A DNA stretch of 64,000 nt from an uncultured Chloroflexia bacterium. GTDB taxonomy: Bacteria; Chloroflexota; Limnocylindria; Limnocylindrales; CSP1-4. The notes beneath the pieces were generated by a model. It saw only the letters and a list, made by a program, of their open reading frames with translations, was not told the origin of the DNA and did no database searches. Of the stretch, positions 1,587 to 20,117 are shown one piece after another (position 1 is the stretch's first letter; every line of letters starts with the position of its first letter). The translations under genes were made by a program, and so were the position numbers. The stretch lies in NCBI GenBank assembly GCA_963721655.1, contig CAVRKH010000008.1, positions 1,026 to 65,025 on the forward strand, given 5' to 3'.

Positions 1587-1748
1587 CCGTGAACCGCCGC
1601 TTCGAGCTTGCCGTTGATTACCAGGGCTGATGATTGGCCAGAACTGCGCACGTTCTGGCCAAACCGGTCCCGTGGACTGGTCCTGCCGCGCAACCCGGAC
1701 AAGGCGCGCCGACCCGGGTTTTGGCGGTCCCCGTGCGATAATCGACCC

Positions 1749-2723
1749 GTGGGAACAGTCGAAACAGTCCGCATCGCGAAGCGGACCGGGTTCTGCTACG
1801 GCGTGCGCGAGGCGATCGACAAGGCGAAGGAAGCCTCGGCCGCCGGCAAGACCACGCATACCCTCGGTCAGGTCGTCCACAACGAAGGCGTCGTCCGCGA
1901 CCTCCAGTCGCTCGGCATCGAGACCGTGGAGACGCTCGACGACGTCGATGGCGGCGCAGCGGTCGTGATCCGCGCGCACGGCGTCCGGCCGGACGTCATG
2001 GAGCGTGCGAACGAGAAGGGCCTCGAGGTCATCGACGGCACCTGCACCTGGGTGATCCAGGAGCACCGCGAGCTGACGAAGCTGGTCGAGGAGGGCTACA
2101 CCATCGTCCTGCTCGGCACGCCGAAGCACGCCGAGGTCGTTGGCATGCTCGGGTTCGCACCGGACGCGATCGTCGTCGACGAGGAAGAGGAGTGGGACGC
2201 GGCGGTCCCGCGCAAGAAGCGGATGGCGCTCATCTCCCAGTCGACGCAGCCGCCGTGGAAGTTCGAGAAGCTGGCCGCGTTCATGGTCGGTCGCGCCCAC
2301 GAGCTCAAGATCGTCAACACCGTGTGCCCGGTCACGATCCGCCGCCAGCAGGACACGATGGAGATCGCGGCCGAGGTCGATCTGATGGTCGTCGTCGGCG
2401 GCCGCTCGAGCGCCAACACCAAGGAGCTGACCCGGCTCTGCGAGATCGCCGGCACGCACGCGATCCAGATCGAGAACGTGCGCGAACTGACCGATCCCTC
2501 GGTGTTCGACGGCAAGCGCGTCGTCGGCGTCACCGGTGGCACGTCCACGCCGATCGAGGACCTTCGCGACGTCACCGAGCGGATCCTCGAGATGGCCGGC
2601 ACGTCGGACGTCAGTGCCCGCGCCGCCGAGCTCGCACAGGAAGCGCTGCTCGTGGCCGCGACCCCGGCCGGCCGCACGACCTCGCTCCCGACACCGTCGA
2701 CGGCCACCGCAGGCGCGGCGTAG
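1749..2723 (+). CDS. ispH: 4-hydroxy-3-methylbut-2-enyl diphosphate reductase
   Basis: ORF 1608..2723. Conserved part starts at GTG 1749 (VGTVETVRIAKRTGFCYGVREAIDKA.. HTLGQVVHNEGVV.. GGRSSANTKEL). Confidence 0.9.
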   Translation: MGTVETVRIAKRTGFCYGVREAIDKAKEASAAGKTTHTLGQVVHNEGVVRDLQSLGIETVETLDDVDGGAAVVIRAHGVRPDVMERANEKGLEVIDGTCTWVIQEHRELTKLVEEGYTIVLLGTPKHAEVVGMLGFAPDAIVVDEEEEWDAAVPRKKRMALISQSTQPPWKFEKLAAFMVGRAHELKIVNTVCPVTIRRQQDTMEIAAEVDLMVVVGGRSSANTKELTRLCEIAGTHAIQIENVRELTDPSVFDGKRVVGVTGGTSTPIEDLRDVTERILEMAGTSDVSARAAELAQEALLVAATPAGRTTSLPTPSTATAGAA

Positions 2724-2727
2724 GGCG

Positions 2728-4341
2728 GTGAGCCCCGCGAGCAACCCGCTCCCGATCGTCGCGATCGTGGGGAGGCCGAACGTCGGGAAGAGCACGCTCT
2801 TCAACCGGATCGTCGGCGGACGCCCCGCGATCGTCGAGGATCGCGCGCGGACGACCCGTGATCGCCTCTACGGCGACGCCGAGTGGAACGGCCGTCGCTT
2901 CGTCGTCGTCGACACCGGCGGGCTCGAGATCGACCCGAACGACCTGATCGAGGCCAAGGTCCAGGAGCAGGCGCGCCTCGCGATCGCCGAAGCGGACGCG
3001 ATCCTCTTCGTCGTGGACGCCGCGACCGGCCTGACGCCGGCCGATCAGGAGGCGTCGGAGCTGCTGCGCCGCGCGACATCACCGGTGATCGTCGCCGTCA
3101 ACAAGGCCGACAACGACAAGCGCGAGCTCGAAGGAGCCGAGTTCCACTCGCTTGGCTGGGAGGAGACCTACCAGATCTCGGCTTCGCACGGGCGCGGGAC
3201 CGGCGACCTGCTCGACGCGATCGTCTGGGCGCTGCCGCCCGAGAGCGAGCAGGAACAAGCGCGGAAAGCTCGAGAGACAGAGGCCGAGGCGTGGGCCGAG
3301 GAAGTGGCGGCCGGCAAGCTGGAGCCGTTCGTGGTCGACGAGCCCGAGGCCGACGAGGACGGCGTCGATGCCGAAAAGGAGGACGCCGGTGCAGCACGCT
3401 GGGACGCCGCGATGGCGGCCGAGGCCGACGAGCCGGCTGCGATCGCCTTCGTCGGCCGTCCGAACGTCGGCAAGTCGAGCCTCGTCAACGCGCTCCTGGG
3501 CCAGGATCGCGCGATCGTGTCCGAAGTCCCGGGGACGACCCGCGATTCGATCGACACGCGACTCGCCTGGGGCCGAAGCGAGATCGTGCTCATCGACACG
3601 GCCGGGATTCGACGCCGCGGAAAGGTCGCCAGCGGACCGGCCGCCGAACGCTATTCGACCCTCCGCGCGCTGCGCGCCATCGCCCGTGCCGACGTCGCAG
3701 TCCTCGTCATCGACGCGGTCGAGGGGCTGACCGCCCAGGACGCCCACGTGGCCGGCTACGTGCTCGAGGAGGGGAAGGGGCTCGTCGTCGCGGTCAACAA
3801 ATGGGACCTCGTCGAGGAGAAGACCGACCGGAGCTTCGACCAGTACGTGTCGTGGATCCGCGACCAGGCGCCGTTCCTCGAGTTCGCGCCGATCGTCTCG
3901 ATCAGCGCGAGGACGGGCCAGCGCGTCAGCAAGGTGCTCGAGCTTGCCGTGGACATCTGGGGGGAGCGCCGCCGCCGCGTGCCGACCGGCGAGCTGAACC
4001 GCCTGCTGGCGACCGCGACCGAACGCGTCCTGCCGGCGATGAGCCGCGGCCGGCGCCCGAAGATCTTCTACGCCACCCAGGCGGCCGTCGCGCCGCCGAC
4101 GTTCGTGTTCTTCGCGTCGGACGCGTCTTCGGTGCACTTCTCGTACCGGCGCTACCTCGAGAACCAGCTGCGCGAGGCGTTCGGCTTCCACGGCACGCCG
4201 ATCAAGCTGGTGTTCCGCGACCGGGCCAAGGTGCGAGTGCCGCGCCGCCGCAGCACGAGGTCCGGGCGAACTCCGGAGACCGCCCGGAAACCATCGCGTT
4301 CGAAGCCGGCCGCGGGCCGACGGCAGCAGGGTCGCCGCTGA
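2728..4341 (+). CDS. der: ribosome-associated GTPase Der/EngA (two GTPase domains plus KH-like domain)
   Basis: In-frame GTG at 2728 within ORF 2536..4341. Two P-loops (GRPNVGKSTLFN, GRPNVGKSSLVN). Acidic linker between the G domains and an Arg/Lys-rich C-terminal tail. Confidence 0.9.
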   Translation: MSPASNPLPIVAIVGRPNVGKSTLFNRIVGGRPAIVEDRARTTRDRLYGDAEWNGRRFVVVDTGGLEIDPNDLIEAKVQEQARLAIAEADAILFVVDAATGLTPADQEASELLRRATSPVIVAVNKADNDKRELEGAEFHSLGWEETYQISASHGRGTGDLLDAIVWALPPESEQEQARKARETEAEAWAEEVAAGKLEPFVVDEPEADEDGVDAEKEDAGAARWDAAMAAEADEPAAIAFVGRPNVGKSSLVNALLGQDRAIVSEVPGTTRDSIDTRLAWGRSEIVLIDTAGIRRRGKVASGPAAERYSTLRALRAIARADVAVLVIDAVEGLTAQDAHVAGYVLEEGKGLVVAVNKWDLVEEKTDRSFDQYVSWIRDQAPFLEFAPIVSISARTGQRVSKVLELAVDIWGERRRRVPTGELNRLLATATERVLPAMSRGRRPKIFYATQAAVAPPTFVFFASDASSVHFSYRRYLENQLREAFGFHGTPIKLVFRDRAKVRVPRRRSTRSGRTPETARKPSRSKPAAGRRQQGRR

Positions 4342-4369
4342 CGACCCGGTGCTAGACTGCGTTGCCTGT

Positions 4370-4446
4370 CGGGGCGTGGCGCAGTCTGGTAGCGCACCAG
4401 TCTGGGGGACTGGTGGTCGTGGGTTCGAATCCCGCCGCCCCGACCA
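4370..4446 (+). tRNA. tRNA-Pro (anticodon GGG), CCA encoded
   Basis: Hand-folded cloverleaf: acceptor CGGGGCG/CGCCCCG, D stem GCGC/GCGC, anticodon stem CCAGT/ACTGG with loop CTGGGGG, T arm GTGGG-TTCGAAT-CCCGC. Confidence 0.9.
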
Positions 4447-4614
4447 AATTCCCCTCACGAAATGGCACTCGGAGGGCGGAGTGTGCCAGCGCGCATGCAG
4501 CGGCGAGGACGGACAACGCGATGCCGAGGGTGACGGGCCGCAGCACGGCGTCATCCTCGCACGCCGATGAGGTGCTCGAAGAAGCAGGCCTGCCCTCGCG
4601 TGAGCACCGCCTGC

Positions 4615-5331
4615 TTACGTCGTCCGCAAGTTCATACCCGCCAAAATGGTCACTGCGAGTGCCACGACCGGCGGCCCCACCATGGCGAAGGCCAGCGCGA
4701 CTTCCTCCGCGTGGTGGCGGTAGCGACGGATTGGCAACGTAAGACGGAGTCCCGCCTGCGCCAAGAAGAGACCCGAAACCCAGCCGACGACCGCACCCGC
4801 GAAGGCCGCTCCGACCGCGGCAGGGAACGCCGTAACTCCCGTCGCGACGAGCACGATAAGACCGACGATGGCTCCGATGGGTGCGGACAGGAATGTGAAG
4901 CACATCGAAGCCTGTCCAAGGCCAGGGTCGGTGCCCAGGGCCTGCCACCGAAACTGGTGCTCACCTGGGGGGCCGATCCGAGCCAGTGCGCCATTCACGT
5001 CCTGAATGAGCACCGACCGGTCCGCGGTCGATCGCACGACCCACTTCTTGCCGAGCCCGACGCGATCGGTTTGATCAAAGTTCACGACCCAGCCATCCGC
5101 CGTGAGACTTGGGACCACGTCCTTGTCGGACGTCGTGATCCCGAACCCAATGACGTACCCGTCCCGGACAGCGCCGTGCACGAAAATTGCCGCCGTTGGA
5201 GCCCTGGCAGCAGCCCTGGCAGTCGTGGCAGCGAGATTTGGCGTGATATCCCATGCCGTGCCACCGCGCCGTTCGACCTCGCTCAGGGCGGCTTCAAGTG
5301 AAGAGATTCCCGGGCCGTTCGCCGTGTTCAT
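4615..5331 (-). CDS. hypothetical protein with soluble N-domain and C-terminal transmembrane segments
   Basis: ORF 4615..5337, likely ATG at 5331 (MNTANGPG..). C-terminal hydrophobic runs (IGAIVGLIVLVATGV, VVGWVSGLFLA, VGPPVVALAVTILAG). Confidence 0.55.
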   Translation of the reverse strand: MNTANGPGISSLEAALSEVERRGGTAWDITPNLAATTARAAARAPTAAIFVHGAVRDGYVIGFGITTSDKDVVPSLTADGWVVNFDQTDRVGLGKKWVVRSTADRSVLIQDVNGALARIGPPGEHQFRWQALGTDPGLGQASMCFTFLSAPIGAIVGLIVLVATGVTAFPAAVGAAFAGAVVGWVSGLFLAQAGLRLTLPIRRYRHHAEEVALAFAMVGPPVVALAVTILAGMNLRTT

Positions 5332-5372
5332 CCCCAACGGCCTCGGCTCCTCCAGCCGGGGCCGTACCTATC
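5329..5372 (+). repeat. intergenic hairpin repeat, copy 1 (left-hand part only)
   Basis: CATCCCCAACGGCCTCGGCTCCTCCAGCCGGGGCCGTACC. Matches the reverse complement of 9289-9328 with one mismatch. Confidence 0.8.
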
Positions 5373-5425
5373 CCTCGGCTTATCGGCCCGACCGCCCGAG
5401 GCCGCGCGTTAAACTAACGCAGTAG

Positions 5426-5539
5426 GGCGAGTGACCTATTGCTGTCGCCGTCGTCTGACGCCGAGGATTGACGAGCTTCCTCCGCACCGGGGAACACAAA
5501 GAGCCGACGTACCCCAGGACGTCGGCTCTTTCGTTTGTG
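5426..5539 (+). repeat. ~115-nt module, left copy of an inverted pair: 17-nt perfect tip plus long hairpin
   Basis: GGCGAGTGACCTATTGC at 5426-5442 is the exact reverse complement of 7825-7841. Hairpin AAAGAGCCGACGT/ACGTCGGCTCTTT at 5498-5531. The spacer is roughly 60 percent similar to its partner by eye. Confidence 0.75.
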
Positions 5540-5574
5540 GCCGTGGAGGCCCCCCGGACAATCACCGCCGGGGG

Positions 5575-5760
5575 ATGATGGTCTCGCCCGAGGGACCCGA
5601 TAGTCATATCGTCGCGACTGGTCAACCGTTAGGCTGCGACATGTCGAAACCCCATCGCGTTCACCCCCCTCGGGCCGCGATAGGGTCTCACTCTTACAAC
5701 GATCCCGCCGCCGATTCGTTAGGCACAATGCGGCGACACCCTGCAGACGGCCCCCCCTGA
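5575..5760 (+). CDS. possible small ORF (61 codons) directly behind a conserved hairpin
   Basis: Hairpin CCCCCCGGACAATCACCGCCGGGGG (5550-5574) abuts ATGATG. No recognisable family and weak coding look. Confidence 0.2.
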   Translation: MMVSPEGPDSHIVATGQPLGCDMSKPHRVHPPRAAIGSHSYNDPAADSLGTMRRHPADGPP

Positions 5761-6200
5761 CTTGCCGTCGCGCAGGGCCTCGGGGAGGTTAGGTCAGCGG
5801 CAGACAGTGCGCAGTACTGCGAGATGCACGGCGACACTGCGACTACGTGTCGATTTCGCACCTACGGACTTGCCGCACGCCGGACAACGAGGGTGAACAT
5901 GCCGCCGCCTTCGCTCGCATCAGGGACCGATCGAGGGGTCGCGGGTACGGAGTCAACTTGATGCACGACGGATGCATCCACTTGTCTGGATGGAGGGTGA
6001 CTACTCGCGGATCGGTGGCGGACAGACCGGCGTCGACGGCGCCGCGGAGCGACGCTTCACGTCCTGGAGACGGGTGGCCACACGCGCGGGATCACGCTCG
6101 CCAGCGATCCGTCGACGTTCGATGCCCGGAACGCGGAACGCCGACAATGCTAGACTCGATCACCTTCGAGTAGCCAACGGTTCGCCGTTCGGTGAGCCAC

Positions 6201-6295
6201 GGCCCGACCCACGGTCGGGGCCGTACCCTGTCCGCCATGACCGAACCCGCGAAGCGTGAGCGTGCCGCGCTCGACGTCTTGGAGCTCTTCCCGGA
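6201..6295 (+). repeat. intergenic hairpin plus mini-ORF repeat, copy 2
   Basis: GGCCCGACCCACGGTCGGGGCC-GTACCCTGTCCGCC-ATGACCGAACCCGCGAAGCGTGAGCGTGCCGCGCTCGACGTC... The mini-ORF is 49 codons (ATG 6237). Confidence 0.8.
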
Positions 6296-6443
6296 ATGGA
6301 CTCAATCCCAGCGAGCGCCGCGGCCTGCACAACCTGACCGACTGACTCGGCCGCTGACGGCCGACGAGGAGGGGCGGGTTACCTAGCGATACGCCGGCTG
6401 ACGGGATAGACCTTTCCATTGGACTGGTACTCGGCCGCCTCGG

Positions 6444-6776
6444 TCAGGGGCGGAATTCCTTGCCATGGTCGAACACGTAGAGGCCCACCCGGGTGATGTT
6501 GTGCAGGTCGCGCTCCTTGACCGCGTCCGTGCTGCAGACCTGGGTGATCGCCTTCAAGTAGGCGGGGGCGAGTTCCTCGATTTCTTTCGCCCTGACGTCC
6601 GCGATCCGGAGGGTCGCCAAGAGGCGGTCCGCCATAGCGAGGCGCTGTGGCTCGGTCATCTCCCCGGCCCATTGCTCACAGGTCGTCTGGTTGGAACTAT
6701 GTGGCCAGCCAGCGGTGATCGCGCTGACGTCGCACCCAACGAGCACGACTGCGAGCACGGCGATGAGTCGCTTCAT
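6444..6776 (-). CDS. lipoprotein, function unknown
   Basis: ORF 6444..6776. MKRLIAVLAVVLVGC is a signal peptide with lipobox. Confidence 0.6.
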   Translation of the reverse strand: MKRLIAVLAVVLVGCDVSAITAGWPHSSNQTTCEQWAGEMTEPQRLAMADRLLATLRIADVRAKEIEELAPAYLKAITQVCSTDAVKERDLHNITRVGLYVFDHGKEFRP

Positions 6777-7038
6777 CTCCGGAACATCCTGAAGCGCCCC
6801 TCCTCTGATTGTGCGCAGCTTGTTGGACGGACGTTACTCCCGCACTGCGCAGGCGAGGCTCCGCGAGAAGTCCCGCCTGCCGACGTCCCGGGTCTCCCTT
6901 TCCGCGCGAGGTCGATGTAGCGTTCCTGTCGTCAAACCAAACCAAGGAGGTCCCGATGTCAAGGTCACCGGCGCGGAGGGCCGGCCTTCGGACCGGCCCT
7001 CCTTTTTCTCCACCCCATCCATTACTGAGGGCTACCCC

Positions 7039-7465
7039 ATGCGCACCCGGCTTTTTGCCGCTCCGTTCGCGCTCTTTCTCCTGCTGACCTCGGTCGGCAT
7101 CGCCGCCGCGGACACCGTTCCGCTCAGAGGCAAACCTGTCCATCGTCGTCACCTCGGCCACGGTTCAGGTGCAGACGGGCGTCGTTACCGTCACAGGTCA
7201 GATCACGTGCGAGGTCGCCCTCTACGACCTCAGCGCGTCGGTCGATATCTCGAAGGGACGCGTCAGTGGTTCCGGCGACGACATTGGGCTGAGCTGCGCC
7301 GCGGGCGAGACGGTCCCGTTCACGACCTCCTTCTCCGCTGACTCCGGTCGGTTCTCCCCCGGTCCGGTGGAGATGGGCCTTGAGGCCCAAGGTGTGGGTC
7401 ACGGTCAGCGCTATGGCTTTGTAACCGAGGGGCTGAACTCGATCGTTCTCGAACCCACTCGCTAG
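7039..7465 (+). pseudogene. secreted protein, signal peptide out of frame with mature part
   Basis: MRTRLFAAPFALFLLLTSVGIAAADTVP is in the frame of ORF 6811..7341. The mature-looking part (..SEANLSIVVTSATVQVQTGVVTVTGQITCE..) is in the frame of ORF 7169..7465, which is open from 7088. Frame change near 7110-7125. Confidence 0.45.
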
Positions 7466-7721
7466 CCGATCTGTAGAGCCAACAGGAGGGTCGGTCAGCG
7501 GCCGGCCCTTCCGCGGCTTGAGACTGCTCCTCGGCAGCAGGCCACACCAAACCGGCAGGCCAATCGTTACTGGGATGGAGGCCCGCCGGTGCGGCGTTGG
7601 GGGGATACGTCGCAACGCGGGGCTCGATACCCTACGCCGCCGTGCAATACCTACTGACCCGGGCACCGCCTCGCGACGCGCTCCTGCACCTCCGCCACCG
7701 CCGGCGGGCCCTCGGGACAGA

Positions 7722-7841
7722 CAAAGAGCCGACGGTCCCAGGGGGGCTAGACCCGTCGACTCTTTGAGTTTTCCGCCCTGGGGGGCCAAGGCTTCGCGAT
7801 CGTGGGCGTAGAACAGCATTCAGCGCAATAGGTCACTCGCC
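7722..7841 (-). repeat. ~115-nt module, right (inverted) copy
   Basis: Hairpin CAAAGAGCCGACGG/CCGTCGACTCTTTG (7722-7766), then the 17-nt tip GCAATAGGTCACTCGCC (7825-7841). Confidence 0.75.
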
Positions 7842-7996
7842 GTATCCAAATGGCGTCGTGATCCCGCGCCTCCGGGGTCGAAGCTGGTGGGTCCATGTGC
7901 GCTGTGGCGGGCCCGCGCGGTCCGTGCCTCCCCCCAGAGGCCGATCGCGCACGGGCCCCTACCCGAGGCCGACAACCGAAACGCACGTCGTGGGCA

Positions 7997-8164
7997 TTAC
8001 GGCCGTCGAGACCCCCGGCAGGAGCCATCGTCAGCCGACTCGGGTTCGCTGCGGATCATCCGAAACACGCATTTCTTCGGGCGGACCGGCACAGCCTCCG
8101 CCGGAGCCAAATCCAAACGGCAGCGGCATTCGTTGAAGCTTAGGAGAACCCCCGGGCAAGCCAT
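7997..8164 (-). CDS. possible small Cys-rich ORF (55 codons) behind the same conserved hairpin
   Basis: Minus strand reads CCCCGGGCAATCACCGCCGGGG-TAACG-ATG (8191-8162). Peptide is MACPGVLLSFNECRCRLD..KKCVFRM..SC. The stretch is locally AT-richer. Confidence 0.25.
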   Translation of the reverse strand: MACPGVLLSFNECRCRLDLAPAEAVPVRPKKCVFRMIRSEPESADDGSCRGSRRP

Positions 8165-8226
8165 CGTTACCCCGGCGGTGATTGCCCGGGGACTCGCTCG
8201 TGCCTTGGCGCGATCGCCGACCCGGC

Positions 8227-8322
8227 TCAACGATCCGGGAGGAGCTCGATGACGTCGAGGGCGGCACGCTCACGCTTCGCGAGGTCGGTCATGGCGGACA
8301 GGGTACGGCCAGGCGTCTCGGA
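8227..8322 (-). repeat. intergenic hairpin plus mini-ORF repeat, copy 3 (inverted)
   Basis: Minus strand reads GGCCGTACCCTGTCCGCC-ATGACCGACCTCGCGAAGCGTGAGCGTGCCGCCCTCGACGTC... The mini-ORF is 21 codons (8292..8227). Confidence 0.8.
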
Positions 8323-8662
8323 GTGAAGTTGGGCCAGATGGGGCTACTCCGGCGAGGCGGGCGGCGGGCTCAAATTGGGTGAATCCCTTCGGCTTGAAGG
8401 TCCCAATGATCGCCTCCGACTCAGGCTCATAGGTCGCGACCGTTTCGGGCAAGCTCTGGAACAGACAAACCATGAGCATGTCGTCTGCCGCGAACGCGTA
8501 CGCGACGGCGGCCTGCTCCGTTCCCCCGTCGCCCTCCCAGTCCCAGCGGATTTGGACGGTTTCTCCGAGGGGCAACGAGATGTGGTCGGAGACCGGCGTC
8601 GTCGTGATGTTGGGAGCGCGCGCGATCGCGTCGACGTTCTCTTGTTCAAGGGAGAAGAGCAC
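8270..8662 (-). CDS. hypothetical protein whose last ~17 codons and stop codon lie inside repeat copy 3
   Basis: ORF 8270..8662 (GTG start overlapping the upstream stop region). The body looks coding (..QIRWDWEGDGGTEQAAVAYAF..). The tail ..WPYPVRHDRPREA* is repeat-encoded. Confidence 0.5.
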   Translation of the reverse strand: MLFSLEQENVDAIARAPNITTTPVSDHISLPLGETVQIRWDWEGDGGTEQAAVAYAFAADDMLMVCLFQSLPETVATYEPESEAIIGTFKPKGFTQFEPAARLAGVAPSGPTSLRDAWPYPVRHDRPREA

Positions 8663-8663
8663 G

Positions 8664-9044
8664 TCAGCGCGGGACGCCCGCCCGTATCCGCCTGGCTGCG
8701 GCCAACGAACGGCTTGATGCGGTCACCGGCGCGCACGTGGACCGCCCGAATTCACCAGTCAGCCAGCTAGCGACCCAATCGGCGAGGCGCTCGGCCTCCT
8801 GTCGGTCGGTCTTGCCGACTTCGTCGAGGTAAGCCGCCCAGCCGGCTCCGTCGCCGGTCACGTAGGTCCATCCCTCCGGGAACGCGAAGGTGTACGGAAC
8901 GTCGCCCGGGAACGGCTGGGGCGTAGACGGCGCAGCCGAGCCGGTCGTCGCGGAACACGCTGCTCCGAATACGATCGCAACCAGAGCGAGCGCCATACCG
9001 ACGCGGATCACGGGAAGCGCAAGCTGAACGCGACCTCGCCCCAT
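8664..9044 (-). CDS. lipoprotein, function unknown
   Basis: In-frame ATG at 9044 within ORF 8664..9212. MGRGRVQLALPVIRVGMALALVAIVFGAACS carries a lipobox. Confidence 0.55.
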   Translation of the reverse strand: MGRGRVQLALPVIRVGMALALVAIVFGAACSATTGSAAPSTPQPFPGDVPYTFAFPEGWTYVTGDGAGWAAYLDEVGKTDRQEAERLADWVASWLTGEFGRSTCAPVTASSRSLAAARRIRAGVPR

Positions 9045-9288
9045 TTGGCAACCACCCTTCTGAGCCCGCACGCCTGTCAACCAAGAGGTCCGGTCCCGCA
9101 ATTGGCCCAGAACGACGGCGACTGTGACGGGACGCCACGCTCCCTCGGGTTCGCGCCGCCCCACGCGCTCCCTGTGCCCTCCCCTTGGTCGCGGAAGTAT
9201 CGCCATCGGCACGGTCAGGTGCGTCGTTCATCTGACGTAATTCGTTCGGCGGTCATCCTCGTAGGCCGGTGGACAAGGGCATGGAAAG

Positions 9289-9328
9289 GGTACGGCCCCG
9301 GCTGGAGGAGCCGGGGCCGTTGGGGATG
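9289..9328 (-). repeat. intergenic hairpin repeat, copy 4 (inverted partner of copy 1)
   Basis: Plus strand reads GGTACGGCCCCGGCTGGAGGAGCCGGGGCCGTTGGGG-ATG. The ATG (9326) opens a 40-codon ORF. Confidence 0.8.
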
Positions 9329-9621
9329 AGTCTGAGAAGGAGAAGGCTCATTCCCGTGACGACATCCTGGTCGACCCGCGAGCGAGTTTCCACGCCTGAA
9401 CCGCGCAGACCCGCGCGCCGTTTCTTGCTGCCTTTGAGCAACTCGTGACCCCGAACCGAAGCTGGCATCGCCCGTTGGTGTGCGGCTTGGCTTCGGCCAG
9501 TTGGATAGTTCCGGGGACAGTGTTCGGCCCCGCCTGCTGGGACCGGTCGTGGTGAGATCGAGATGGACCTCGCAGAGCTGGAGGCCGAGACGCTCGACTA
9601 CGACCAGCGGGTGCTTGAGTT

Positions 9622-9700
9622 CGGTGCAGGCACCTAGTGGCACCACCTTGGCCGTCTGGGGACTGGTGGTCGTGGGTTCGAATCCCGCTGCCCCGACCAA
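9622..9700 (+). pseudogene. tRNA-Pro remnant: 3' half near-identical to 4400-4447, 5' half degenerate
   Basis: 9654-9700 equals 4400-4447 apart from one G deletion and one C>T. The anticodon stem cannot pair (GCCGT vs ACTGG) and the D arm is not foldable. Confidence 0.75.
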
Positions 9701-9800
9701 TTTATCCCGCTCGAATTTGACCACTCAATGGCCGGAGTGTGTTCCGAAGCGGGAGATCGCGCGCGTGTTTTGCGCCGGAACCGTGTGCAACAGCCGGCGT

Positions 9801-11702
9801 TCAGGGGGCGAGGCGCTGGTAGGAGGCGGTTCCGAAGTGTGAGATCTCGGTCGTGACCGGCTGGAGCTGCCCGGATGGGTCGAACTCGATGATGGTGTTC
9901 TCGTTGGCATTGGGACCCTTGTCAGCGTCCGCGAACGCCAGGCCGAGCAGGCGGGCGCCATCGGGCGACCAGAGCAGCTGGTACGGACTCAACCGGGGAC
10001 CGGGAACGGGGCGCGCGTTCGAGCCGTCGGCATCGGCGACCATGAAGAACGCGTTGGCATAGGAGGTGTCTGGATTCCGAACATATGCGAGGCGCGTGCC
10101 GTCCGGCGACCAGGCCACGCCATTCTCATCCTCGGCGCTGTTCGAGACGTTGCGGAGGTTCCTTCCGTCTGCGTCGACGACGTGCACGTCGCGCAGGTCG
10201 CCGACACCCCGCGCCAGGAACGCGAGCCGCCGACCGTCCGCCGACCATGTGGGCTGCGCGCCCCCGCCCGGGTTCGACCTCGAGTGACCGGACATCGTCT
10301 GTACCCGTGAGTCCCAGATATCGGGCGCAGCCTCGTGGGCGTTCGATCCATCGACATTGATGACCCACAGCGAGTCGAGCGCTTCGCCGCAACAAGTCGT
10401 CCGGTGAAAGGCGATTTGGCGGCTGTCCGGAGACCAGGCCGGATCGCCCCCGAACACGTCCGGCCCGCCGAGCCGCACCGCGCCGGGGTCGTCGATCGCG
10501 CCGATGAGGATCTGCCGTTCCTCCTCGCCGACCGGCCGAGCCGCGACCGCGACGTGACGGCTGTCCGGCGACCAGGCGATCGGACTGTTTTCGGCGAGCC
10601 CTTCGATCACTTGGACGCGCTCGCCACCGTCGGCCGGCATCACGAACACGTCGAACGAGAAGTCCGGCTGCTGCGATTCGAAGGCGATCAGCGTCCCGTC
10701 CGGGGAGTAGGCGGGGAGGGCCTCGAACTCGGGCCCCGAGGTCAGCTGGACCAGCCCTGAGCCGTCGGGGTTCGACGCGAACAGGTCGCCGTTCGCGTCG
10801 AAGGCGATCAGGCCCGGCTTCGCGAGACCGAACGGAGGTGCGGGCCTGCGCGACGAGCCGATCACTGCCAGCACCGTCGCAAGCGCGATCAACAGCAGGA
10901 CGACGGTCACCACTGCGACGACCCTCGGGCTGAGGCTCGCGCGGTTCACCAACCGCCGCGGCCGCCACCGATCGGCGACGAGCAGGCGCGGCCGCTGCCG
11001 GGTCGACTCGACGCCAGCCAGCGCGGCTTCGAGCAGCCCGTCCGGGGCCCGGCCGACGGCCTGCTCGTCGAAGTAGACCCGGAAGTCGCGGTCGAGGTCG
11101 CGCTGGGTGGTCATCGCATCGCTCCCGTCGCGAATCCGCTCGCTGCGGCGTACGTCGGCGTCCAGCTCCGCGCGCATCGCGGCCGTGGCGCGATGGAGGC
11201 GCGACTTGTAGGTGCCGGTCGGGATGTCGAGCATCCGGGCCGCCTCGTCGTCCGACAACTCGAGGTAGTGGTGGGCCACGAGCACCGCTCGGTGCTCGGC
11301 GCTCAGGCCGCGAAATGCCCGGTGGATCGCGTCCCGCGTCTCGAGTGTCCGCGCCGGGTCCGGCGCGCTGTCCTCGACCGCCGGCAGGATCTGTCGCAAC
11401 GCGACCTGCCGCCGCTCGCGCCCGGCCGCCCGGTAGACGCAGCGGACGAGCACCCGGTCGAGCCAGGCCCGGAAGCTGTCCGGGTCGCGGAGCGAGCGCA
11501 GGTCGCGCCACGCCGCGATCAGGGCCTCCTGGACGGCGTCCGAGGCAAGGTCGGGGTCCGCGAGCATGAGCTGCGCGAGGTTGTAGAGCTGGCCGATCGA
11601 CGCGGCCGCCAGGACGCCGAAGGCGTCCCGGTCGCCTCGTTGTGCCCGCTCCACCAGATCCCGCTGCACGCTCGCAATTGCCTCCGGCCTGCTGCTCCGC
11701 AC
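9801..11702 (-). CDS. single ORF joining an ECF sigma-70 factor, a linker, one TM helix and a TolB-like PD40 beta-propeller
   Basis: Uninterrupted 633-codon ORF. Sigma regions 2 and 4 are present (AVQEALIAAWRDLRSLRDPDSFRAWLDRVLV.. IPTGTYKSRLHRA). Internal Met at 11114. TM segment VVAVVTVVLLLIALATVLAVI. PD40 blades (YSPDG.., WSPDS.., WSADG..). Likely start GTG 11669 or 11702. Confidence 0.75.
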   Translation of the reverse strand: MRSSRPEAIASVQRDLVERAQRGDRDAFGVLAAASIGQLYNLAQLMLADPDLASDAVQEALIAAWRDLRSLRDPDSFRAWLDRVLVRCVYRAAGRERRQVALRQILPAVEDSAPDPARTLETRDAIHRAFRGLSAEHRAVLVAHHYLELSDDEAARMLDIPTGTYKSRLHRATAAMRAELDADVRRSERIRDGSDAMTTQRDLDRDFRVYFDEQAVGRAPDGLLEAALAGVESTRQRPRLLVADRWRPRRLVNRASLSPRVVAVVTVVLLLIALATVLAVIGSSRRPAPPFGLAKPGLIAFDANGDLFASNPDGSGLVQLTSGPEFEALPAYSPDGTLIAFESQQPDFSFDVFVMPADGGERVQVIEGLAENSPIAWSPDSRHVAVAARPVGEEERQILIGAIDDPGAVRLGGPDVFGGDPAWSPDSRQIAFHRTTCCGEALDSLWVINVDGSNAHEAAPDIWDSRVQTMSGHSRSNPGGGAQPTWSADGRRLAFLARGVGDLRDVHVVDADGRNLRNVSNSAEDENGVAWSPDGTRLAYVRNPDTSYANAFFMVADADGSNARPVPGPRLSPYQLLWSPDGARLLGLAFADADKGPNANENTIIEFDPSGQLQPVTTEISHFGTASYQRLAP

Positions 11703-11732
11703 GATAGGGGACGCGAATACCGCTTTCGTTCC
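11701..11732 (-). promoter_or_regulatory. candidate ECF-type promoter upstream of the sigma ORF
   Basis: Minus strand reads GGAACGAA-N15-CCCTAT about 30 nt upstream of GTG 11669. Same bipartite spacing as the two plus-strand copies. Confidence 0.35.
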
Positions 11733-11740
11733 ATTTTCTG

Positions 11741-11828
11741 GGCCGGGCGCTGGCGGCGGCGTCCAGTGGAACGAATCGACCCCACGTCATCCCTATAGGT
11801 CGGCAACGGGCCGCCGACGATGGAGCGA
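11741..11828 (+). promoter_or_regulatory. ~88-nt direct repeat copy 1, containing GGAACGAA-N15-CCCTAT and a GTCGGC/GCCGAC hairpin
   Basis: Near-identical to 12349-12433. GGAAC is at 11768-11772. Confidence 0.45.
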
Positions 11829-11839
11829 CGGCAGCGGCC

Positions 11840-12338
11840 AGCACGAGATCGGCGACCTGCCCTATGGCGATCCGAACGTGTCACCCGACGGCGAGCACGC
11901 TGCTGATGCTCGGCTTCGCAGGACGACGACGAGCGCCAGCAGGCGCTCGTCACGGCCAGCATGTCGGGGGGCGACGTCGAGCGGATCACGTCGTTCGCGC
12001 TCGACGCCGCGGGCAAGAGCGACTGGGCGCCGGACCGTCGCCGCGTCACGACGAGCGACAACGCGAACATCCCCGAGCTGTCAGCCAACGTTGTCACGGT
12101 GCCGGCCGACGGCGGCGAGCCGTTCCATGTCACCGAGTACAGCGACCCCGCCGTTCGGGCGTACGTCGGCGGCTACTCGCCGGATGGCAACTGGATCGTG
12201 TTCCGCCTCGAAGACCACGGACAGCACGCCCTGTGCCTGGTGCGTCCTGACGGCACGGGGCTGCGCACGATCATGCCCCTCTCGGACTTCCGGCCCCGAG
12301 GGATCGACTGGGGTCCCCCCGCCGTGCGATCGAAATAG
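11840..12338 (+). pseudogene. PD40 beta-propeller fragment (C-terminal remnant, several frame changes)
   Basis: PNVSPDGEH.. is in the frame of ORF 11878, and LLMLGFAG in the frame of ORF 11864. The rest is ORF 11961..12338 (YSPDGNWIVFRLED..LVRPDGTGL). No intact N-terminus. Confidence 0.4.
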
Positions 12339-12348
12339 ACCTCGGCGC

Positions 12349-12433
12349 GGGCCGGGCGTCGGCGCGTCGAGTGGAACGAATCGACCCGACGTCGTCCCTA
12401 TAGGTCGGCAGCGGGCCGCCGACGATGGAGCGA
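12349..12433 (+). promoter_or_regulatory. ~88-nt direct repeat copy 2, about 80 nt upstream of the 12514 gene
   Basis: GGAAC at 12373-12377, CCCTAT 15 nt later. The sequence is otherwise almost identical to copy 1. Confidence 0.45.
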
Positions 12434-12513
12434 GCCCTCGCCTGAACCTCGAGGGAGTCGACGATGGGGATCAAACGCCGAGCCGCGCATGGGTTGATCT
12501 GGAGGGATCCGTC

Positions 12514-13467
12514 ATGAAGCGGCCGTCGCGCCGCGCGAGTGGAGGGAGGCCGGCCATGCGCCGCGTCAGTGCAATCGTCGGAGTCGTGCTGCTGCTGGTC
12601 CTGATGCTGCCAGCGGCGGCTATCGCTGCTGAACCGGGGGACGAGCCAGACACCGCCATTCCGGTATCAGCCGGCGAGGCCATCTACGACTCCACCGCGA
12701 TGACCTCAAACGCGGCCGTCGACCCGGCCAGTTGCGGCGAGTTCGAGGACTTCAGCAACACGATGTGGTTCTCGTACACTCCGGCCAAGTCCGGCGTGAC
12801 GTTGGTCGACATCAACTCATTCGTGTCCGAGGACGGATCGACGGACTTCCAGGCGATCGCCTTCGTCTACCAGGTCGAGTCGAGCGGCAGCCGGACCCTG
12901 GTCGGCTGCTCGGCCTTCCCGGCGACAGTCGTCTTCAAGGCCTCGGCCGGGACCACCTACCTGATCGTGTCCGCAGCGCTCGACGCCGAGGATACCGGCG
13001 AGCCTGAGTTGTCGGACCACGGTGGCACCTTCAACCTCGCGGTCATTCCGGTTCGCGGGCGCGTCCTGACCTCCCGCGATCATTTCGAAGACTCCTTCGT
13101 CGATGAGTCCGCGAGCGAGCAGTGCGGCACCGAGGTCACGGTCTCGTTCGATGACCGGGTCATGGAGAAGACGTTCGTGACCGCCGACGGCTTCCGGATG
13201 TTCACGTTCTTCGTCGTCGGAAGCACGACCTTCTCGACGGCCGACGGCTCCGAGGTCACCATCGCCTACGCCCAGCCATTCCGCGACACCCTCGACGGGA
13301 CAGTCACGTTCCTCGGGCTGCCGCTCAAGTTGATCGTCGATGGTGAGGTGGTCTCGCTCGACGTCGGCCGGCTGGTCGTCGACGAAGAGGGCAACGTCGT
13401 GTTCGAAGCCGGCTCGCACCAGTTCTTCGGCGAAGGCGTCGACATCTGCGGGCTGCTCGCTGGCTAG
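12514..13467 (+). CDS. secreted hypothetical protein
   Basis: ATG 12514 preceded by GGAGGG, in frame within ORF 11878..13467. Signal peptide is ..VSAIVGVVLLLVLMLPAAAIAAEP. Confidence 0.7.
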   Translation: MKRPSRRASGGRPAMRRVSAIVGVVLLLVLMLPAAAIAAEPGDEPDTAIPVSAGEAIYDSTAMTSNAAVDPASCGEFEDFSNTMWFSYTPAKSGVTLVDINSFVSEDGSTDFQAIAFVYQVESSGSRTLVGCSAFPATVVFKASAGTTYLIVSAALDAEDTGEPELSDHGGTFNLAVIPVRGRVLTSRDHFEDSFVDESASEQCGTEVTVSFDDRVMEKTFVTADGFRMFTFFVVGSTTFSTADGSEVTIAYAQPFRDTLDGTVTFLGLPLKLIVDGEVVSLDVGRLVVDEEGNVVFEAGSHQFFGEGVDICGLLAG

Positions 13468-13554
13468 AAGACACACTCCGCGCAGGCGACGGCCACCCCC
13501 GACCGTCGCCTGAGCGCCCGGGCGGCGGCCAATGTAGCCGTCAGGCTTGAAATC

Positions 13555-13665
13555 GGCCCCGGCCCACGGTCGGGGCCGTTACCCTGTCCACCCTGACCGA
13601 CCCGGCGAAACGCGAGCGCGCTGTCCTCGAGGTGCTCGGACGACTCCCGGATCGTTTCGGCCGTC
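13555..13665 (+). repeat. intergenic hairpin plus mini-ORF repeat, copy 5 (ATG replaced by CTG)
   Basis: GGCCCCGGCCCACGGTCGGGGCC-GTTACCCTGTCCACC-CTGACCGACCCGGCGAAACGCGAGCGCGCTGTCCTCGAGGTG..CTCCCGGATCGTT. Confidence 0.75.
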
Positions 13666-13873
13666 GGCCCGACTTTCTACGATCCCGGGACGCGCCGCTG
13701 GTCGGCGACGTGAGGACGGGGGCGGCCCTGGGCCTTGTCGCCGGGTGGAAAATGGGGCCAAGGAACGACCGTGATCGATCGACGATGATCGGAGTCGTCG
13801 TCGACGCGCTGGGGCCTACTCGGACGTCCTGCTCCCGGCCGTCCCGTCCGTGCGCCTCGAGGAGGGTAGCCGC

Positions 13874-14344
13874 ATGGGCCGCATCCACCACGAGTACCAC
13901 ATCGATGCTCCGCCCGAAGTCGCCTGGGCGCTCGGGCGCGACGCCAATCGGATACCCGAGTGGAATACGACCACGGTGTCGGTCAAGGACGTGAGCGGGC
14001 CGCTCGACCGCCAAGGCGCCACGTACACCGCGGTCTCGAAGATCGCCGGCCGGCCCCTCGAGGTCCAGTGGCAGGTCAAGCAGGTCGACCCAGGCCGCAT
14101 GGCGGAGGTGACGGCGAGCTCGCCCAGAGGAGGGAGTGCCCACCTGATCGTCCGCTACGAACCCGATGGTTCGGGCACGAAGTTCAGCATGGATCTCGAC
14201 TACGAGCTGCCAATGGGGTTCCTCGGCGATGTCGCGGACAAGCTCTTCGCGGAGCGGTCGATGACCCGGGACGTGCAGCACTCGGGCGAGAACTTCAAGG
14301 CGCTCGTCGAAGAGGCGGCGATGGTCCCGACCACATCCGGCTGA
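13874..14344 (+). CDS. SRPBCC (START/polyketide cyclase-like) family protein
   Basis: ATG 13874 after GGAGGG. MGRIHHEYHIDAPPEVAWALGRDANRIPEWN.. is typical of the SRPBCC N-terminus. Confidence 0.7.
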   Translation: MGRIHHEYHIDAPPEVAWALGRDANRIPEWNTTTVSVKDVSGPLDRQGATYTAVSKIAGRPLEVQWQVKQVDPGRMAEVTASSPRGGSAHLIVRYEPDGSGTKFSMDLDYELPMGFLGDVADKLFAERSMTRDVQHSGENFKALVEEAAMVPTTSG

Positions 14345-14492
14345 AGCTCCACCTCCACCCCGTCCAGCTAACGCCCTGGTTCCGTCCGGCCAGACCGCTC
14401 GACACGCGATCGTGCGGGGCCACTCATTCGGGCCCCCGTTACGGCGTCCTGCAGCTCGCTATGCTCAAACGATGTAGCTCGAGGTCCGTGCA

Positions 14493-15047
14493 ATGGGCTG
14501 GCGAGACAAGCTTCTGGGTAAGCAGCCCAGCTTCCCGCACGACGCACCTGACCTGGAGGCGACGATGCCGAGCAGCGTTGCCGGCCGGACGTTGGTCACA
14601 TGGTCAGTTTCAGGCGACCGCTTCTGGGCCAACCTTGACCGACAGGGTGGTGGTCGCCTCCGGTCGGCCCTCGGTCCTGAACTCGACGATGCCGGGTTGC
14701 CGCCAGATTCGATCGCGATGGCCGTCGCGGGTCGCGAGGACAAGAGCCATCCGCCATCCATTGTCTGGGCTATGCGCTTCGGAGAGGAGAGGGCCGCTGC
14801 CTTGCCCGCGCCTGCGACCGCACTCGCGATGGAAGTCATGCACGTCGATGCCAACCAGGGCGCGAATTGGCAGGACGCCATCGTCGCCGACAAGGCGGTT
14901 CTCGTGGGCCATCACAAGATGGTCCGCCAAGACCAACATCACCGCGGGAAGCCCTACGTCTACCTTGGTGGGTGGGCCTTGTACGCTCTCATCGCCGACG
15001 ACGAGGCATGGGCGGCTGAGGTGATTCGACACTTGCCAGCATCCTGA
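14493..15047 (+). CDS. hypothetical protein
   Basis: ORF 14493..15047 with a protein-like composition. No family recognised. Confidence 0.5.
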   Translation: MGWRDKLLGKQPSFPHDAPDLEATMPSSVAGRTLVTWSVSGDRFWANLDRQGGGRLRSALGPELDDAGLPPDSIAMAVAGREDKSHPPSIVWAMRFGEERAAALPAPATALAMEVMHVDANQGANWQDAIVADKAVLVGHHKMVRQDQHHRGKPYVYLGGWALYALIADDEAWAAEVIRHLPAS

Positions 15048-15199
15048 AGCCAATCACGCGGCGACCCATGACCGACCAGCGAACCGAGAGCGTGTCTCGC
15101 TCGACTGCGCCCTCGGGAACGCCTCACGGACGGCTCACGAAGGCGGCTTAGCCAAGGCAAGCCAGCGGTGAGTGGACCCTTCCGCTACGACCGGCGCCG

Positions 15200-15997
15200 C
15201 TAAGCGCGGGCGGGCGCGGACGCGGCGACCGCGTCCCGGGCGGTGAGGACGAGCGGGCCGTCGGCGGTGATCGCCACGGTGTGCTCGACGTGGACGCCCC
15301 GCGACCGGTCCACCGATCGGATCGTCCAGCCGTCGCGGTCGATGACGATCTTCGGGCTGCCCGCCAGGAACCAGGGCTCGATCGCGATGACGAGCCCGGG
15401 CTGCAATGCGAGGCCGCGCCCCGCGACCCCGTCGTTCGGGACGTTCGGCGGCTCGTGCATCACCCGCCCGACTCCGTGCCCGCCGAACGCGGTGTTGACC
15501 TGGTAGCCCGCGCCCCGGATCACGCCGCCGACGGCCGCCGAGACGTCGCCCAGCCGGTTGCCTGGCTGCGCGGCGGCGATCCCCGCGGCGAGCGCCCGCT
15601 CAGCGGTCTCGACCTGACTCAGGTCCTCGTCGCGTGGCGTCCCGACCGGAATCGTGATCGAGGAGTCGGCGACCCAGCCGTCGACCTCCGCGGCGAAGTC
15701 GAGGCTGACGAGGTCCCCGTCCCGCAGCCGCCGGTCGTGCGGCAGCCCGTGGAGCACCGCGTCGTTGATCGAGACGCAGAGCACCTTGCCGAACGGCATC
15801 GCGCCGAACGAGGGGTGGTAGTCGATGTAGCAGCTCGTCGCGCGGCGCTCGCGGATCATCGCGTGCGCGATCCGGTCAAGCTCCAGCGCGTTGATGCCGA
15901 CCCGGGTCCGCTCGGCGAGCTCCATGAGCACCGCCGCGACGAACCGGCCGGCGGGTCGCATCGCCTCGATCTCGGCGCGGCTCCGAAGCTCGATCAC
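15200..15997 (-). CDS. map: type I methionine aminopeptidase
   Basis: ORF 15200..15997. Motifs: DGDLVSLDF, GHGVGRVMHEPPNVPN, IAIEPW, HVEHTVAIT. Confidence 0.9.
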   Translation of the reverse strand: MIELRSRAEIEAMRPAGRFVAAVLMELAERTRVGINALELDRIAHAMIRERRATSCYIDYHPSFGAMPFGKVLCVSINDAVLHGLPHDRRLRDGDLVSLDFAAEVDGWVADSSITIPVGTPRDEDLSQVETAERALAAGIAAAQPGNRLGDVSAAVGGVIRGAGYQVNTAFGGHGVGRVMHEPPNVPNDGVAGRGLALQPGLVIAIEPWFLAGSPKIVIDRDGWTIRSVDRSRGVHVEHTVAITADGPLVLTARDAVAASAPARA

Positions 15998-16073
15998 GCG
16001 CTGATCGTAGGGCTTCGATGTCAGTCGGTCGGCAATGGACCTTCGCGCCCGAGGGCTCAGTGTCCTTGGCGGC

Positions 16074-16565
16074 TCATCCGCGAGGTCGACCGGGCCAGGG
16101 GATGAGCCGTCGGGTCCGCGCCCGGTACGCCGCGTAGTCCGGGAAGCGCTGCTCGAGCCAGGCCTCCTCGCGCACGGACTTCACGAGCAAGAAGGCCGCG
16201 AGCGCCACGGCGAGGGCGACAGCGACGATCGACGCTTGGCCGATCGCCCAGCCGAATGCTGCGAGAATGAGCCCGCCGTAGATCGGGTGGCGAACGAACG
16301 AGTACGCGCCCGTTTCAACGAGGGCGGCACCGTCGCGTGGCTTGGGAAGCGGCGTGAATGCGCCTCTGAGGTCGATGGCTCCACGGACGGCGAGGACGAT
16401 GCCACCGGCGATCAGCACGATCCCGACGACGATGCCCGCGAGGCGCAGCGTCCCGGACCAGTCCGGCCCGAGCGACCAGCCAGCGGCCGCGACGACGACG
16501 AGCAATACGCCCTGGATGAGGACCCATCCCTCCCCACGCGGGCCGAGCGACGGCAGATGCGTCAT
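16074..16565 (-). CDS. isoprenylcysteine carboxyl methyltransferase (ICMT/PEMT-like) family membrane protein
   Basis: Polytopic ORF with FVRHPIYGG..EEAWLEQRFPDYAAY. Confidence 0.75.
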   Translation of the reverse strand: MTHLPSLGPRGEGWVLIQGVLLVVVAAAGWSLGPDWSGTLRLAGIVVGIVLIAGGIVLAVRGAIDLRGAFTPLPKPRDGAALVETGAYSFVRHPIYGGLILAAFGWAIGQASIVAVALAVALAAFLLVKSVREEAWLEQRFPDYAAYRARTRRLIPWPGRPRG

Positions 16566-16766
16566 CCATGGATGCTAGGCGCCCGACGGCCAGCCGCGCG
16601 CCTATCGACGTTGCGTGATCTCCGGCGCCCTTGACGGGCGTCGGAACGGTGCTAGCGTCGGCAGTCGGGGCCAGAGACGGAGCCCGCGACGGCACCGAAC
16701 GCGCTGGCCCTACCGGCCTGCTTCCGGAGCGACAACCGGGAGCGGCGTCGAGGAGGAGGCGCTGGC

Positions 16767-17348: not shown

Positions 17349-17448
17349 TCGGAGCGACGATTGCTCGAAGGCAGCAGCCTTCAGGGCGCGGTTCTGCTTG
17401 GCTGATGCGTTCGAATTCGCACCCAGGTCGATCAGGCTCTATGCACGG

Positions 17449-17523
17449 TCCCGGCTCTCCCCCAGCCGGGGCCGTACTCTGTCCCCCGAGACCGACCCCG
17501 CGAAGCGCGAGCTGCGGCGTTGA
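17449..17523 (+). repeat. intergenic hairpin plus mini-ORF repeat, copy 6 (truncated, ATG replaced by GAG)
   Basis: CCCGGCTCTCCCCCAGCCGGGGCC-GTACTCTGTCCCCC-GAGACCGACCCCGCGAAGCGCGAGC, then divergence. Confidence 0.75.
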
Positions 17524-20057: not shown

Positions 20058-20117
20058 TCACCGAGCTACGGATCGCTGAGGCCCGCAGCAGCACGGACGT
20101 TGCGTCGTTCACGGTTC

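Follow-up and report, generated by a model that had tools for sequence, protein, structure and literature searches.

A probable fossil attachment site downstream of tRNA-Pro(GGG) in a soil Limnocylindria genome and the probably decayed, remodelled island that it bounds

The DNA analyzed here (the window) is a stretch of 64,000 nucleotides, contig C8:1026-65025 of G000, a metagenome-assembled genome (MAG) from the Chloroflexota class Limnocylindria that comprises 3.39 Mb in 21 contigs, has a guanine-plus-cytosine (GC) content of 70%, and is 76% complete. Many relatives of this genome are “MFD” MAGs, assembled from deep Nanopore data on soils and sediments in Denmark (PMC12313526). G003, which appears repeatedly below, is a sister species in the same genus, and G001, G002, G004, and G005 are other sister species. 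ARAGORN called two tRNAs in the window, one of which is tRNA-Pro(GGG) at 4370-4446, and the 3' part of this gene is found again 5.2 kb downstream. Our subject is that partial copy, which we interpret as a fossil right attachment site (attR), together with the interval between it and the intact gene. The features that frame the locus are as follows (window positions).

4370-4446, plus strand: intact tRNA-Pro(GGG), called by ARAGORN and scoring 64.3 bits with the Rfam tRNA model; 4400-4446 is the left (attL) copy of the repeat.
4447-4487, plus strand: 40-nt block 3' of the tRNA, conserved in the C9 version of the locus, G001, and G003; it ends at the last position common to all versions of the locus.
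9654-9741, plus strand: attR, made up of tRNA-Pro position 31 through CCA (9654-9700) and a diverged copy of the 40-nt downstream block; not a tRNA.
9769-11808, minus strand: right flank, an extracytoplasmic function (ECF) sigma factor and PD40 anti-sigma factor gene pair, common to all four versions of the locus, accessory in its own right and absent from the sister species.
4447-22600, no strand: full flexible region downstream of tRNA-Pro, delimited by the positions of sister-species orthologues.

The segment 4400-4446 (GTCTGGGGGACTGG...CCGACCA) is repeated in direct orientation at 9654-9699/9700. The second copy is one G short in the anticodon-loop GGGGG run and has a single C>T change, for an identity of 46/47, exactly as an earlier note, made from the letters of this DNA, had described it. 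The left edge of the repeat is tRNA position 31, in the anticodon loop, where identity drops sharply from 46/47 to no significant similarity; both the repeat and this edge are direct observations. A 39-mer from the 3' part of the tRNA (GACTGG...GACCA) has exactly two sites in the window, 4408-4446 with no mismatches and 9661-9699 with one, and two matches were reached in 0 of 100 dinucleotide-preserving shuffles. The earlier note had also reported weaker similarity beyond both copies; BLAST and local alignment extended the match past the tRNA, pairing 4400-4485 with 9654-9741 at 83% identity over 89 columns.

No tRNA was called by ARAGORN at 9600-9720, a check that the note had suggested, and the Rfam tRNA model gave no match at 9622-9700. 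Folding of the second copy produced neither an acceptor stem nor a cloverleaf, and the similarity of 9622-9653 to the tRNA 5' half was equalled or exceeded by 72 of 500 shuffles, in agreement with the earlier description of this part as barely tRNA-like and unable to fold. One-nucleotide homopolymer indels are frequent in these assemblies, that of the window included, and the “missing G” of attR may therefore be a consensus error. The block that follows the intact tRNA (4447-4487) resembles the P' start of viral phage attachment (attP) sites (CACGAAATGG box). It has a weak fold and no T-run, and we infer at most that it may be a terminator.

Similar repeats recur in related genomes. Of 251 family genomes that we searched for the 39-mer from the tRNA 3' part, 66 contain it, and in 8 of these the contig bears another copy in direct orientation at a distance of 1.1 to 13.9 kb; tRNA-Pro(GGG) is thus a recurrent integration site in the family. 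G003 is among the eight, with a copy spacing of 13.9 kb. Local alignment of the copy pairs placed the start of the repeat at tRNA positions 24-31, in the anticodon arm, in 8 of 8 genomes; position 32 was often mismatched, and effective identity began at CTGGGGG in the loop. In G246, an intact gene for a 397-aa integrase lies directly 3' of the tRNA (phrog_1, E=1.6e-67), and the 10.5-kb interval between the copies also holds a replication initiator and a small terminase subunit. The 1.1-kb interval of G014 retains a 47-residue C-terminal integrase remnant.

The same core occurs in three viral contigs from IMG/VR, L031, L032, and L033 (UViG_3300005764_000147, 3300046722_000057, and 3300049440_000027), where it starts at GTCTGGGGG, that is, at tRNA position 31. 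Arm-type direct repeats flank this core on both sides, and an integrase gene lies 230 to 370 nt downstream. Because they lack a full tRNA, are flanked by arm repeats, and have an integrase nearby, we identify the viral core sites as attP. The viral sequence just past CCA (e.g., ATTCCTGAGCACGAATGG) resembles the 40-nt downstream block of the window, which explains why similarity continues past the end of the tRNA. The proposal in the earlier note of an attL/attR-type scar left by a tyrosine recombinase is therefore upheld by an edge that lies within positions 24-31 in all eight genomes and, in the three viral attP sites, at position 31, and we conclude that the second copy is the fossil attR of a tyrosine integrase specific for tRNA-Pro(GGG). 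Sequences to the left of attR (the arms) are mutually homologous in G003, G023, G090, G182, and G246 (scores 9 to 35, mostly 14 to 35). The attR arm of the window matches only the core-proximal 20 nt of the G246 arm, with a score of 12 against 7.0 ± 1.3 for shuffles, 2 of 500 of which reached it.

The attP sites make it possible to connect the three uncultivated viral contigs with these hosts. The exact T-arm variant of the window is present in L032 and L033, and from this sequence match we regard these two as candidate phages of the genus of the window or of one closely related to it. The G246 element (L022, G246:C69:40235-50838) has no detectable structural genes, and its architecture is like that of a phage satellite.

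A second copy could also have arisen without site-specific recombination, by segmental duplication of the tRNA-Pro region or as the decayed member of a tandem tRNA pair. We consider this origin most improbable, although three observations speak for it: the similarity continues past the tRNA for about 40 nt, G014 has a second “tRNA-Pro” by ARAGORN, and the genome of the window itself has two tRNA-Gln(CTG) genes 5.5 kb apart. The abrupt loss of identity at position 31, the recurrence of that edge in the other genomes and the viral sites, and the failure of the second copy to make a complete, foldable tRNA by ARAGORN, Rfam, or folding all argue against it, as does the finding that the genes between the copies differ in every genome. 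The G014 call scores 20.5 bits, below the Rfam gathering score of 29, and sits beside the integrase remnant. We found no relatives with two functional tandem tRNA-Pro genes and the same genes between them, the arrangement that the earlier note had named as a sign of plain duplication.

Recombinase, transposase, and phage genes were not detected in the 5.2-kb interval, as the note had also reported. A six-frame search of the whole genome with PF00589 found six places, none of which is in the window, and tblastn with the G246 integrase gave no match in the island at E≤10. A Pfam search of all six frames of 4447-9655 (stops read as X), which covers the search for recombinase remnants that the note had recommended, returned no family at E≤0.1; Pfam searches of single open reading frames (ORFs) gave no family beyond noise, and a PHROG search with ten ORFs gave no match at E≤0.01. 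There is thus no integrase inside the interval beside an att site and, unlike in G246, no hallmark gene of a prophage or satellite by PHROG or Pfam. Elsewhere in G000 we saw integrase fragments at C9:237102-237281, 150 nt away from tRNA-Lys(CTT), and at C1:77038-77440, some 600 nt away from tRNA-Pro(TGG). Every phage-type integrase that we saw in this MAG is a fragment, and two Xer-like genes are the only ones that look intact.

The interval (4447-9653) carries the following features.

4486-4565, minus strand: R1, the start of a lipoprotein gene that breaks off at 4486, consisting of the ribosome-binding site and about 25 codons, which encode a signal peptide and the lipobox LAAAC.
4615-5337, minus strand: gene for a 240-aa membrane protein of an orphan family.
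5328-5368, plus strand: left copy of the outer inverted repeat, a GC hairpin followed by GGCCGTACC; its partner is 9289-9329 (41 nt, 97.6%).
6219-6295, plus strand: R2 head, a hairpin, TACCCT-N7-ATG, and the first ~20 codons (MTEPAKRERAALDVLELFPEW) of a small-protein family; truncated.
6444-6776, minus strand: gene for a 110-aa lipoprotein with an LVGC lipobox; best codon-position GC signal in the interval.
7038-7509, plus strand: gene-sized module with an exported-protein gene (ATG at 7040, stop at 7465) and a 3' hairpin.
8234-8310, minus strand: R2 head, inverted partner of 6219-6295 (77 nt, 92%).
8270-9050, minus strand: lipoprotein gene (signal peptide, FGAAC lipobox, 8664-9050), then a 130-codon ORF in another frame (8270-8662).
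9060-9329, minus strand: hairpin (9289-9329, right copy of the outer inverted repeat) and a conserved leader of about 240 nt upstream of the lipoprotein gene.

The inventory in the earlier note was roughly right; the interval encodes a membrane protein, lipoproteins at 6444-6776 and 8664-9050, an exported protein at 7040-7465 (frameshifted), and the head of a lipoprotein gene at 4486-4565. The nested inverted repeats that it mentioned correspond to the pairs 5328-5368/9289-9329 and 6219-6295/8234-8310. The codon-position GC signal is weak over most of the interval, where GC content is 64 to 69% compared with 70% for the genome. Close homologues of the 240-aa membrane protein numbered only 5 among 5.8 billion proteins, and the 110-aa lipoprotein at 6444-6776 matched no Pfam or PHROG family. 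The window copy of 7040-7465 has one extra T near 7124, which leaves the signal peptide and the mature part in different frames; the G003 copy is in frame. The ORF at 8270-8662 and the lipoprotein gene at 8664-9050 may be one gene with an indel.

Several of these features belong to a pool of modules shared among tRNA-linked islands. R1, R2, and the lipoprotein leader recur in an island at tRNA-Leu(TAA) on contig C14 of the same genome, in an island on C15 after a second tRNA-Gln(CTG), and at 13.5 to 20.3 kb of the window. Full-length copies of R1 are found in the C14 and C15 islands and in contig L030 (L030 9746-10165 versus C14 128512-128091, 91%), and a full 110-aa gene of the R2 family lies at C14 125046-124714. 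Leaders homologous to that at 9060-9329 occur at 20204-20343 of the window, at C15 65734-65962, and in G003 (L002 2022-2172 and L021 1919-2061). In the C14 island (C14:123971-129553), the tRNA is followed directly by an integrase pseudogene truncated at its 5' end (PF00589, 45.5 bits, model positions 3-149), and a 72-nt tRNA-derived attR lies at 123971-124042.

Some modules have diverged less between lineages than the core genes have. The 472-nt unit 7038-7509 is 98% identical to G003:C6:186718-187188, with unrelated flanks, compared with about 91 to 93% for core genes, and for L030, identity to the window is 97.3% over R1 with the membrane-protein gene and 92.5% over ispH-der. From these sequence comparisons, we interpret the exported-protein modules as being exchanged between species faster than core genes diverge.

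Besides complete genes for the R1 lipoprotein and the R2 small protein, the C14 island contains a zinc-ribbon ORF and an ECF sigma/anti-sigma pair. The two tRNA-Gln(CTG) genes of C15 (56975-57049 and 62551-62626) lie 5.5 kb apart and are 84% identical; downstream of the second come two R1 lipoprotein genes in tandem and an island of more than 10 kb that has these repeat modules too. In tRNA-linked islands, GGCCGTACCCT-N7-ATGACCGA with a GC hairpin in front is present in about ten copies, including window 6219-6260, 8310-8270, and 9297, C14:122823, and C15:70778. Many R2-type copies consist of only the first 60 to 80 nt of the small-protein gene (MT[DE]PAKRERAALD...). The spacing of TACCCT suggests the -10 box of a leaderless transcript for this putative small-protein family.

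Other versions of the locus show how much of it varies. On contig C9 of the same genome, C9:13667-10892 corresponds to window 1710-4487 (97%) and C9:6426-4387 to window 9769-11808 (92%), and between these blocks lie 4.47 kb of unrelated DNA with no attR; tblastx of the C9 end against the window gave only compositional noise, as produced by 70% GC. Variation between versions of the locus thus runs from 4488, just past the conserved 40-nt block, to about 9768. The left block differs between C8 and C9 by 74 substitutions, mostly synonymous changes at third codon positions, and by four 1-nt indels, and C8 begins exactly where G003 has an insertion relative to C9. Because of this mostly synonymous pattern and the C8 start, it is likely that C8 and C9 carry a single locus as found in two strains, which the assembler separated, and we rejected a real duplication of ispH-der-tRNA-Pro within one genome on the same grounds. 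In the C9 copy, the four 1-nt indels break ispH and der. A two-strain assembly bubble running from ispH-der-tRNA-Pro to the sigma/anti-sigma pair would inflate marker-gene “contamination.”

With two versions of the locus on C8 and C9, an assembly bubble, and with 1-nt indels that break nearby genes, we also considered that the repeat might be a chimeric join made in assembling a strain-mixed long-read MAG. This is very unlikely: attR carries substitutions of its own and has unique sequence to its left and right, seven other independently assembled genomes show this architecture, and a chimeric join would more likely have yielded a full tRNA or an exact copy.

Two further versions are L029 and L030, ENA contigs located via the 240-aa membrane protein. 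They share R1 and the membrane-protein gene (window 4486-5333) at 95 to 97% and the sigma/anti-sigma block at 91 to 97%; their homology to the window stops at 5333, and from there to the sigma/anti-sigma block their DNA is different and lacks attR. Related contigs without attR therefore match the first 850 nt of the interval at 95 to 97%. L030 has an extra 1.6 kb between the 40-nt block and R1 and carries the full-length R1 gene there, for which reason we interpret window 4486 as a deletion junction. Loss of the integrase through this deletion is unproven, since the extra 1.6 kb of L030 holds two lipoprotein genes and a small ORF and no integrase.

In G004, G001, and G005, only 2.3 to 3.3 kb of unrelated DNA separates the tRNA from orthologues of window 22.6-23.2 kb; the sigma/anti-sigma pair is absent. 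From the closeness of these orthologues to the tRNA we place the flexible region at about 18 kb (4447 to ~22600), with attR internal to it; no further tRNA-Pro fragment was found at its distal end. The inference in the earlier note that 4448-9653 is one inserted segment does not survive these comparisons, as the interval is shared in part with contigs that lack attR, breaks at 4488 and ~9768, is a mosaic of modules, and belongs to a region that is flexible to about 22.6 kb. Contig G002:C3 ends (187219) exactly at the 3' end of tRNA-Pro, which suggests that the region downstream could not be assembled there either and is variable or repetitive.

These comparisons raise the possibility that the fossil attR was imported, that is, that it arrived with a strain-specific segment (~5334-9768) by homologous recombination in the flanks, from a strain that had undergone the original integration. 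We think this unlikely. The attR does sit at the right end of the only segment that is unique to this version, and the flanks are 92 to 97% identical in four versions with different inserts, as replacement by flanking homology predicts; the order of attR, then a copy of the tRNA-downstream block, then shared flank after 27 nt, is instead the pattern of integration in situ. Import would in any case modify the decayed-island account given next and offers no alternative to an integrase origin.

The account that we favor, and consider probable, is that 9654-9741 is the fossil attR of a phage-type insertion whose integrase was lost and whose interval was remodelled. A phage-type element with a tyrosine integrase, and with an attP that comprised the tRNA 3' part from position 31 and some downstream sequence, would have recombined with tRNA-Pro(GGG) by strand exchange in the anticodon loop, at a time when the tRNA adjoined the anti-sigma gene. 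At attL, integration would have restored a complete tRNA, and the displaced copy would have become attR, at a distance of 27 nt from the sigma/anti-sigma operon. Later the element would have lost its integrase and whatever phage or transfer genes it had, and the interval would have been overwritten through deletion and through exchange of gene-sized modules that also circulate among the other tRNA-linked islands of the lineage. The result would be a nonautonomous, probably immobile att-flanked remnant inside a hypervariable hotspot of about 18 kb. The order of these events and the loss of the integrase by deletion are probable in the same sense; the mosaic structure, the absence of a recombinase, the recurrence in relatives, and the matching attP sites and integrases are observed directly.

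Several observations weigh against this account. The genus-consensus 40-nt block sits at attL, which is the element-derived side in a simple model of crossover in the anticodon loop, and this position fits only if attP carries the block, as the viral attP sites suggest. The attR arm lacks the tandem arm repeats found about 100 nt upstream in other genomes, and its similarity to G246 is short. The interval now has no phage-like cargo from which the original element could be recognized. Among the relatives searched, we found neither an empty site nor an integrase-bearing version of this island, and the sister species are without the sigma/anti-sigma flank; integration at this locus is for that reason argued by analogy.

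A different view of the same interval is that it is a living nonautonomous element, a cis-mobilizable element (CIME) or integrase-less satellite, moved in trans by the integrases of tRNA-Pro(GGG)-specific phages or satellites and spreading genes for exported proteins. CIMEs are att-flanked elements that have lost their integration and transfer genes, and they can transfer with a helper (PMC5704250). The att copies of the window are 46/47 identical, cognate pairs of attP and integrase exist in viral contigs, two of which share the exact T-arm variant, and modules are 97 to 98% identical across lineages with ~92% core genes. Movement as a living element is nevertheless unlikely, because homology between lineages breaks at module edges (5333 and 7038/7509) and never spans a whole attL-attR unit, versions with the same left 850 nt have no attR, and no intact phage-type integrase was found in the 76%-complete MAG. 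The missing G in the presumed overlap region would, if real, block exchange between attL and attR. In a stronger form of this view, quite unlikely in our judgment, the interval would be a functional cargo-only hitchhiker with working att sites, excised and reintegrated in trans by the integrases of Limnocylindria tRNA-Pro(GGG) phages or satellites. If true, the interval would amount to a minimal cargo satellite by which genes for surface proteins pass from species to species.

Under the decayed-island account, which we retain, the locus has the structure by which a CIME is defined: the interval is flanked by att sites and lacks integration genes, at a site with accretion and decay. The category was defined for decayed integrative and conjugative elements and integrative and mobilizable elements of Firmicutes, and the parent in the window was more likely a phage or satellite. 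The mosaicism at the level of modules argues against movement as a whole unit, and the possible 1-nt difference in the overlap region would, if real, speak against excision or transfer in trans.

Williams reportedly set out, in Nucleic Acids Research in 2002, classes of tRNA sublocation for integrative elements. The locus resembles tRNA-targeting integrative elements with crossover in the anticodon loop, a group of prophages, satellites, and genomic islands whose attP includes the tRNA 3' part, in having a direct repeat of the tRNA 3' part from the anticodon loop, an intact tRNA at one end and a partial copy at the other, and cognate pairs of attP and integrase in viral contigs and G246. As in such islands, the interval is bounded by a direct repeat of the tRNA 3' part, with a fixed edge in the anticodon loop as in the cognate attP. 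It differs in that the interval is without an integrase, excisionase, phage, or transfer gene, its cargo is unrelated to that of the integrase-bearing relatives, and the repeat extends about 40 nt past the tRNA.

Additive flexible genomic islands beside tRNA genes are said to have been described by Lopez-Perez and Rodriguez-Valera, mainly in marine Proteobacteria. The window shares with them tRNA-adjacent hypervariability between strains and species, small genes for envelope or exported proteins, and conserved flanks with swapped content; the present case comes from soil Chloroflexota (Limnocylindria) and has a recognizable fossil attR inside the hotspot. The tRNA-Leu(TAA) island on C14 of the same genome is similar in its R1 and R2 modules, its ECF sigma/anti-sigma pair, and its tRNA-derived attR (72 nt in C14), and differs in its other tRNA target and in the 5'-truncated integrase pseudogene that it has retained.

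The locus is thus a decayed genomic island of an ordinary kind and a known class, in little-studied soil Chloroflexota. To our knowledge, mobile elements are almost undescribed in Limnocylindria. The locus exemplifies how loss of the integrase turns tRNA-linked islands into strain-variable gene hotspots, and it leaves the current understanding of integrative elements unchanged. The by-products of the analysis (the recurrent site, the viral links, and the module pool) may be more useful than the island itself.

Two other ideas about the repeats and leaders of the interval were considered and rejected. An integron-like array of attC cassettes does not fit, because the repeats lie on both strands as nested inverted pairs, are promoters and 5' coding heads of paralogous genes, and have no integrase; this was judged from the arrangement, as no attC model was run. 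A riboswitch in the island leader was dismissed because Rfam found nothing within 4440-9800, and the island's own copy of the leader had no match. Farther downstream, at window 20240-20326 on the plus strand, Rfam gave a sub-threshold match to c-di-GMP-II-GAG (38.9 bits versus a gathering score of 40, E=1.9e-4), which falls in the conserved leader of about 140 nt upstream of lipoprotein genes; within the island, the related stretch is 9060-9204 on the minus strand.

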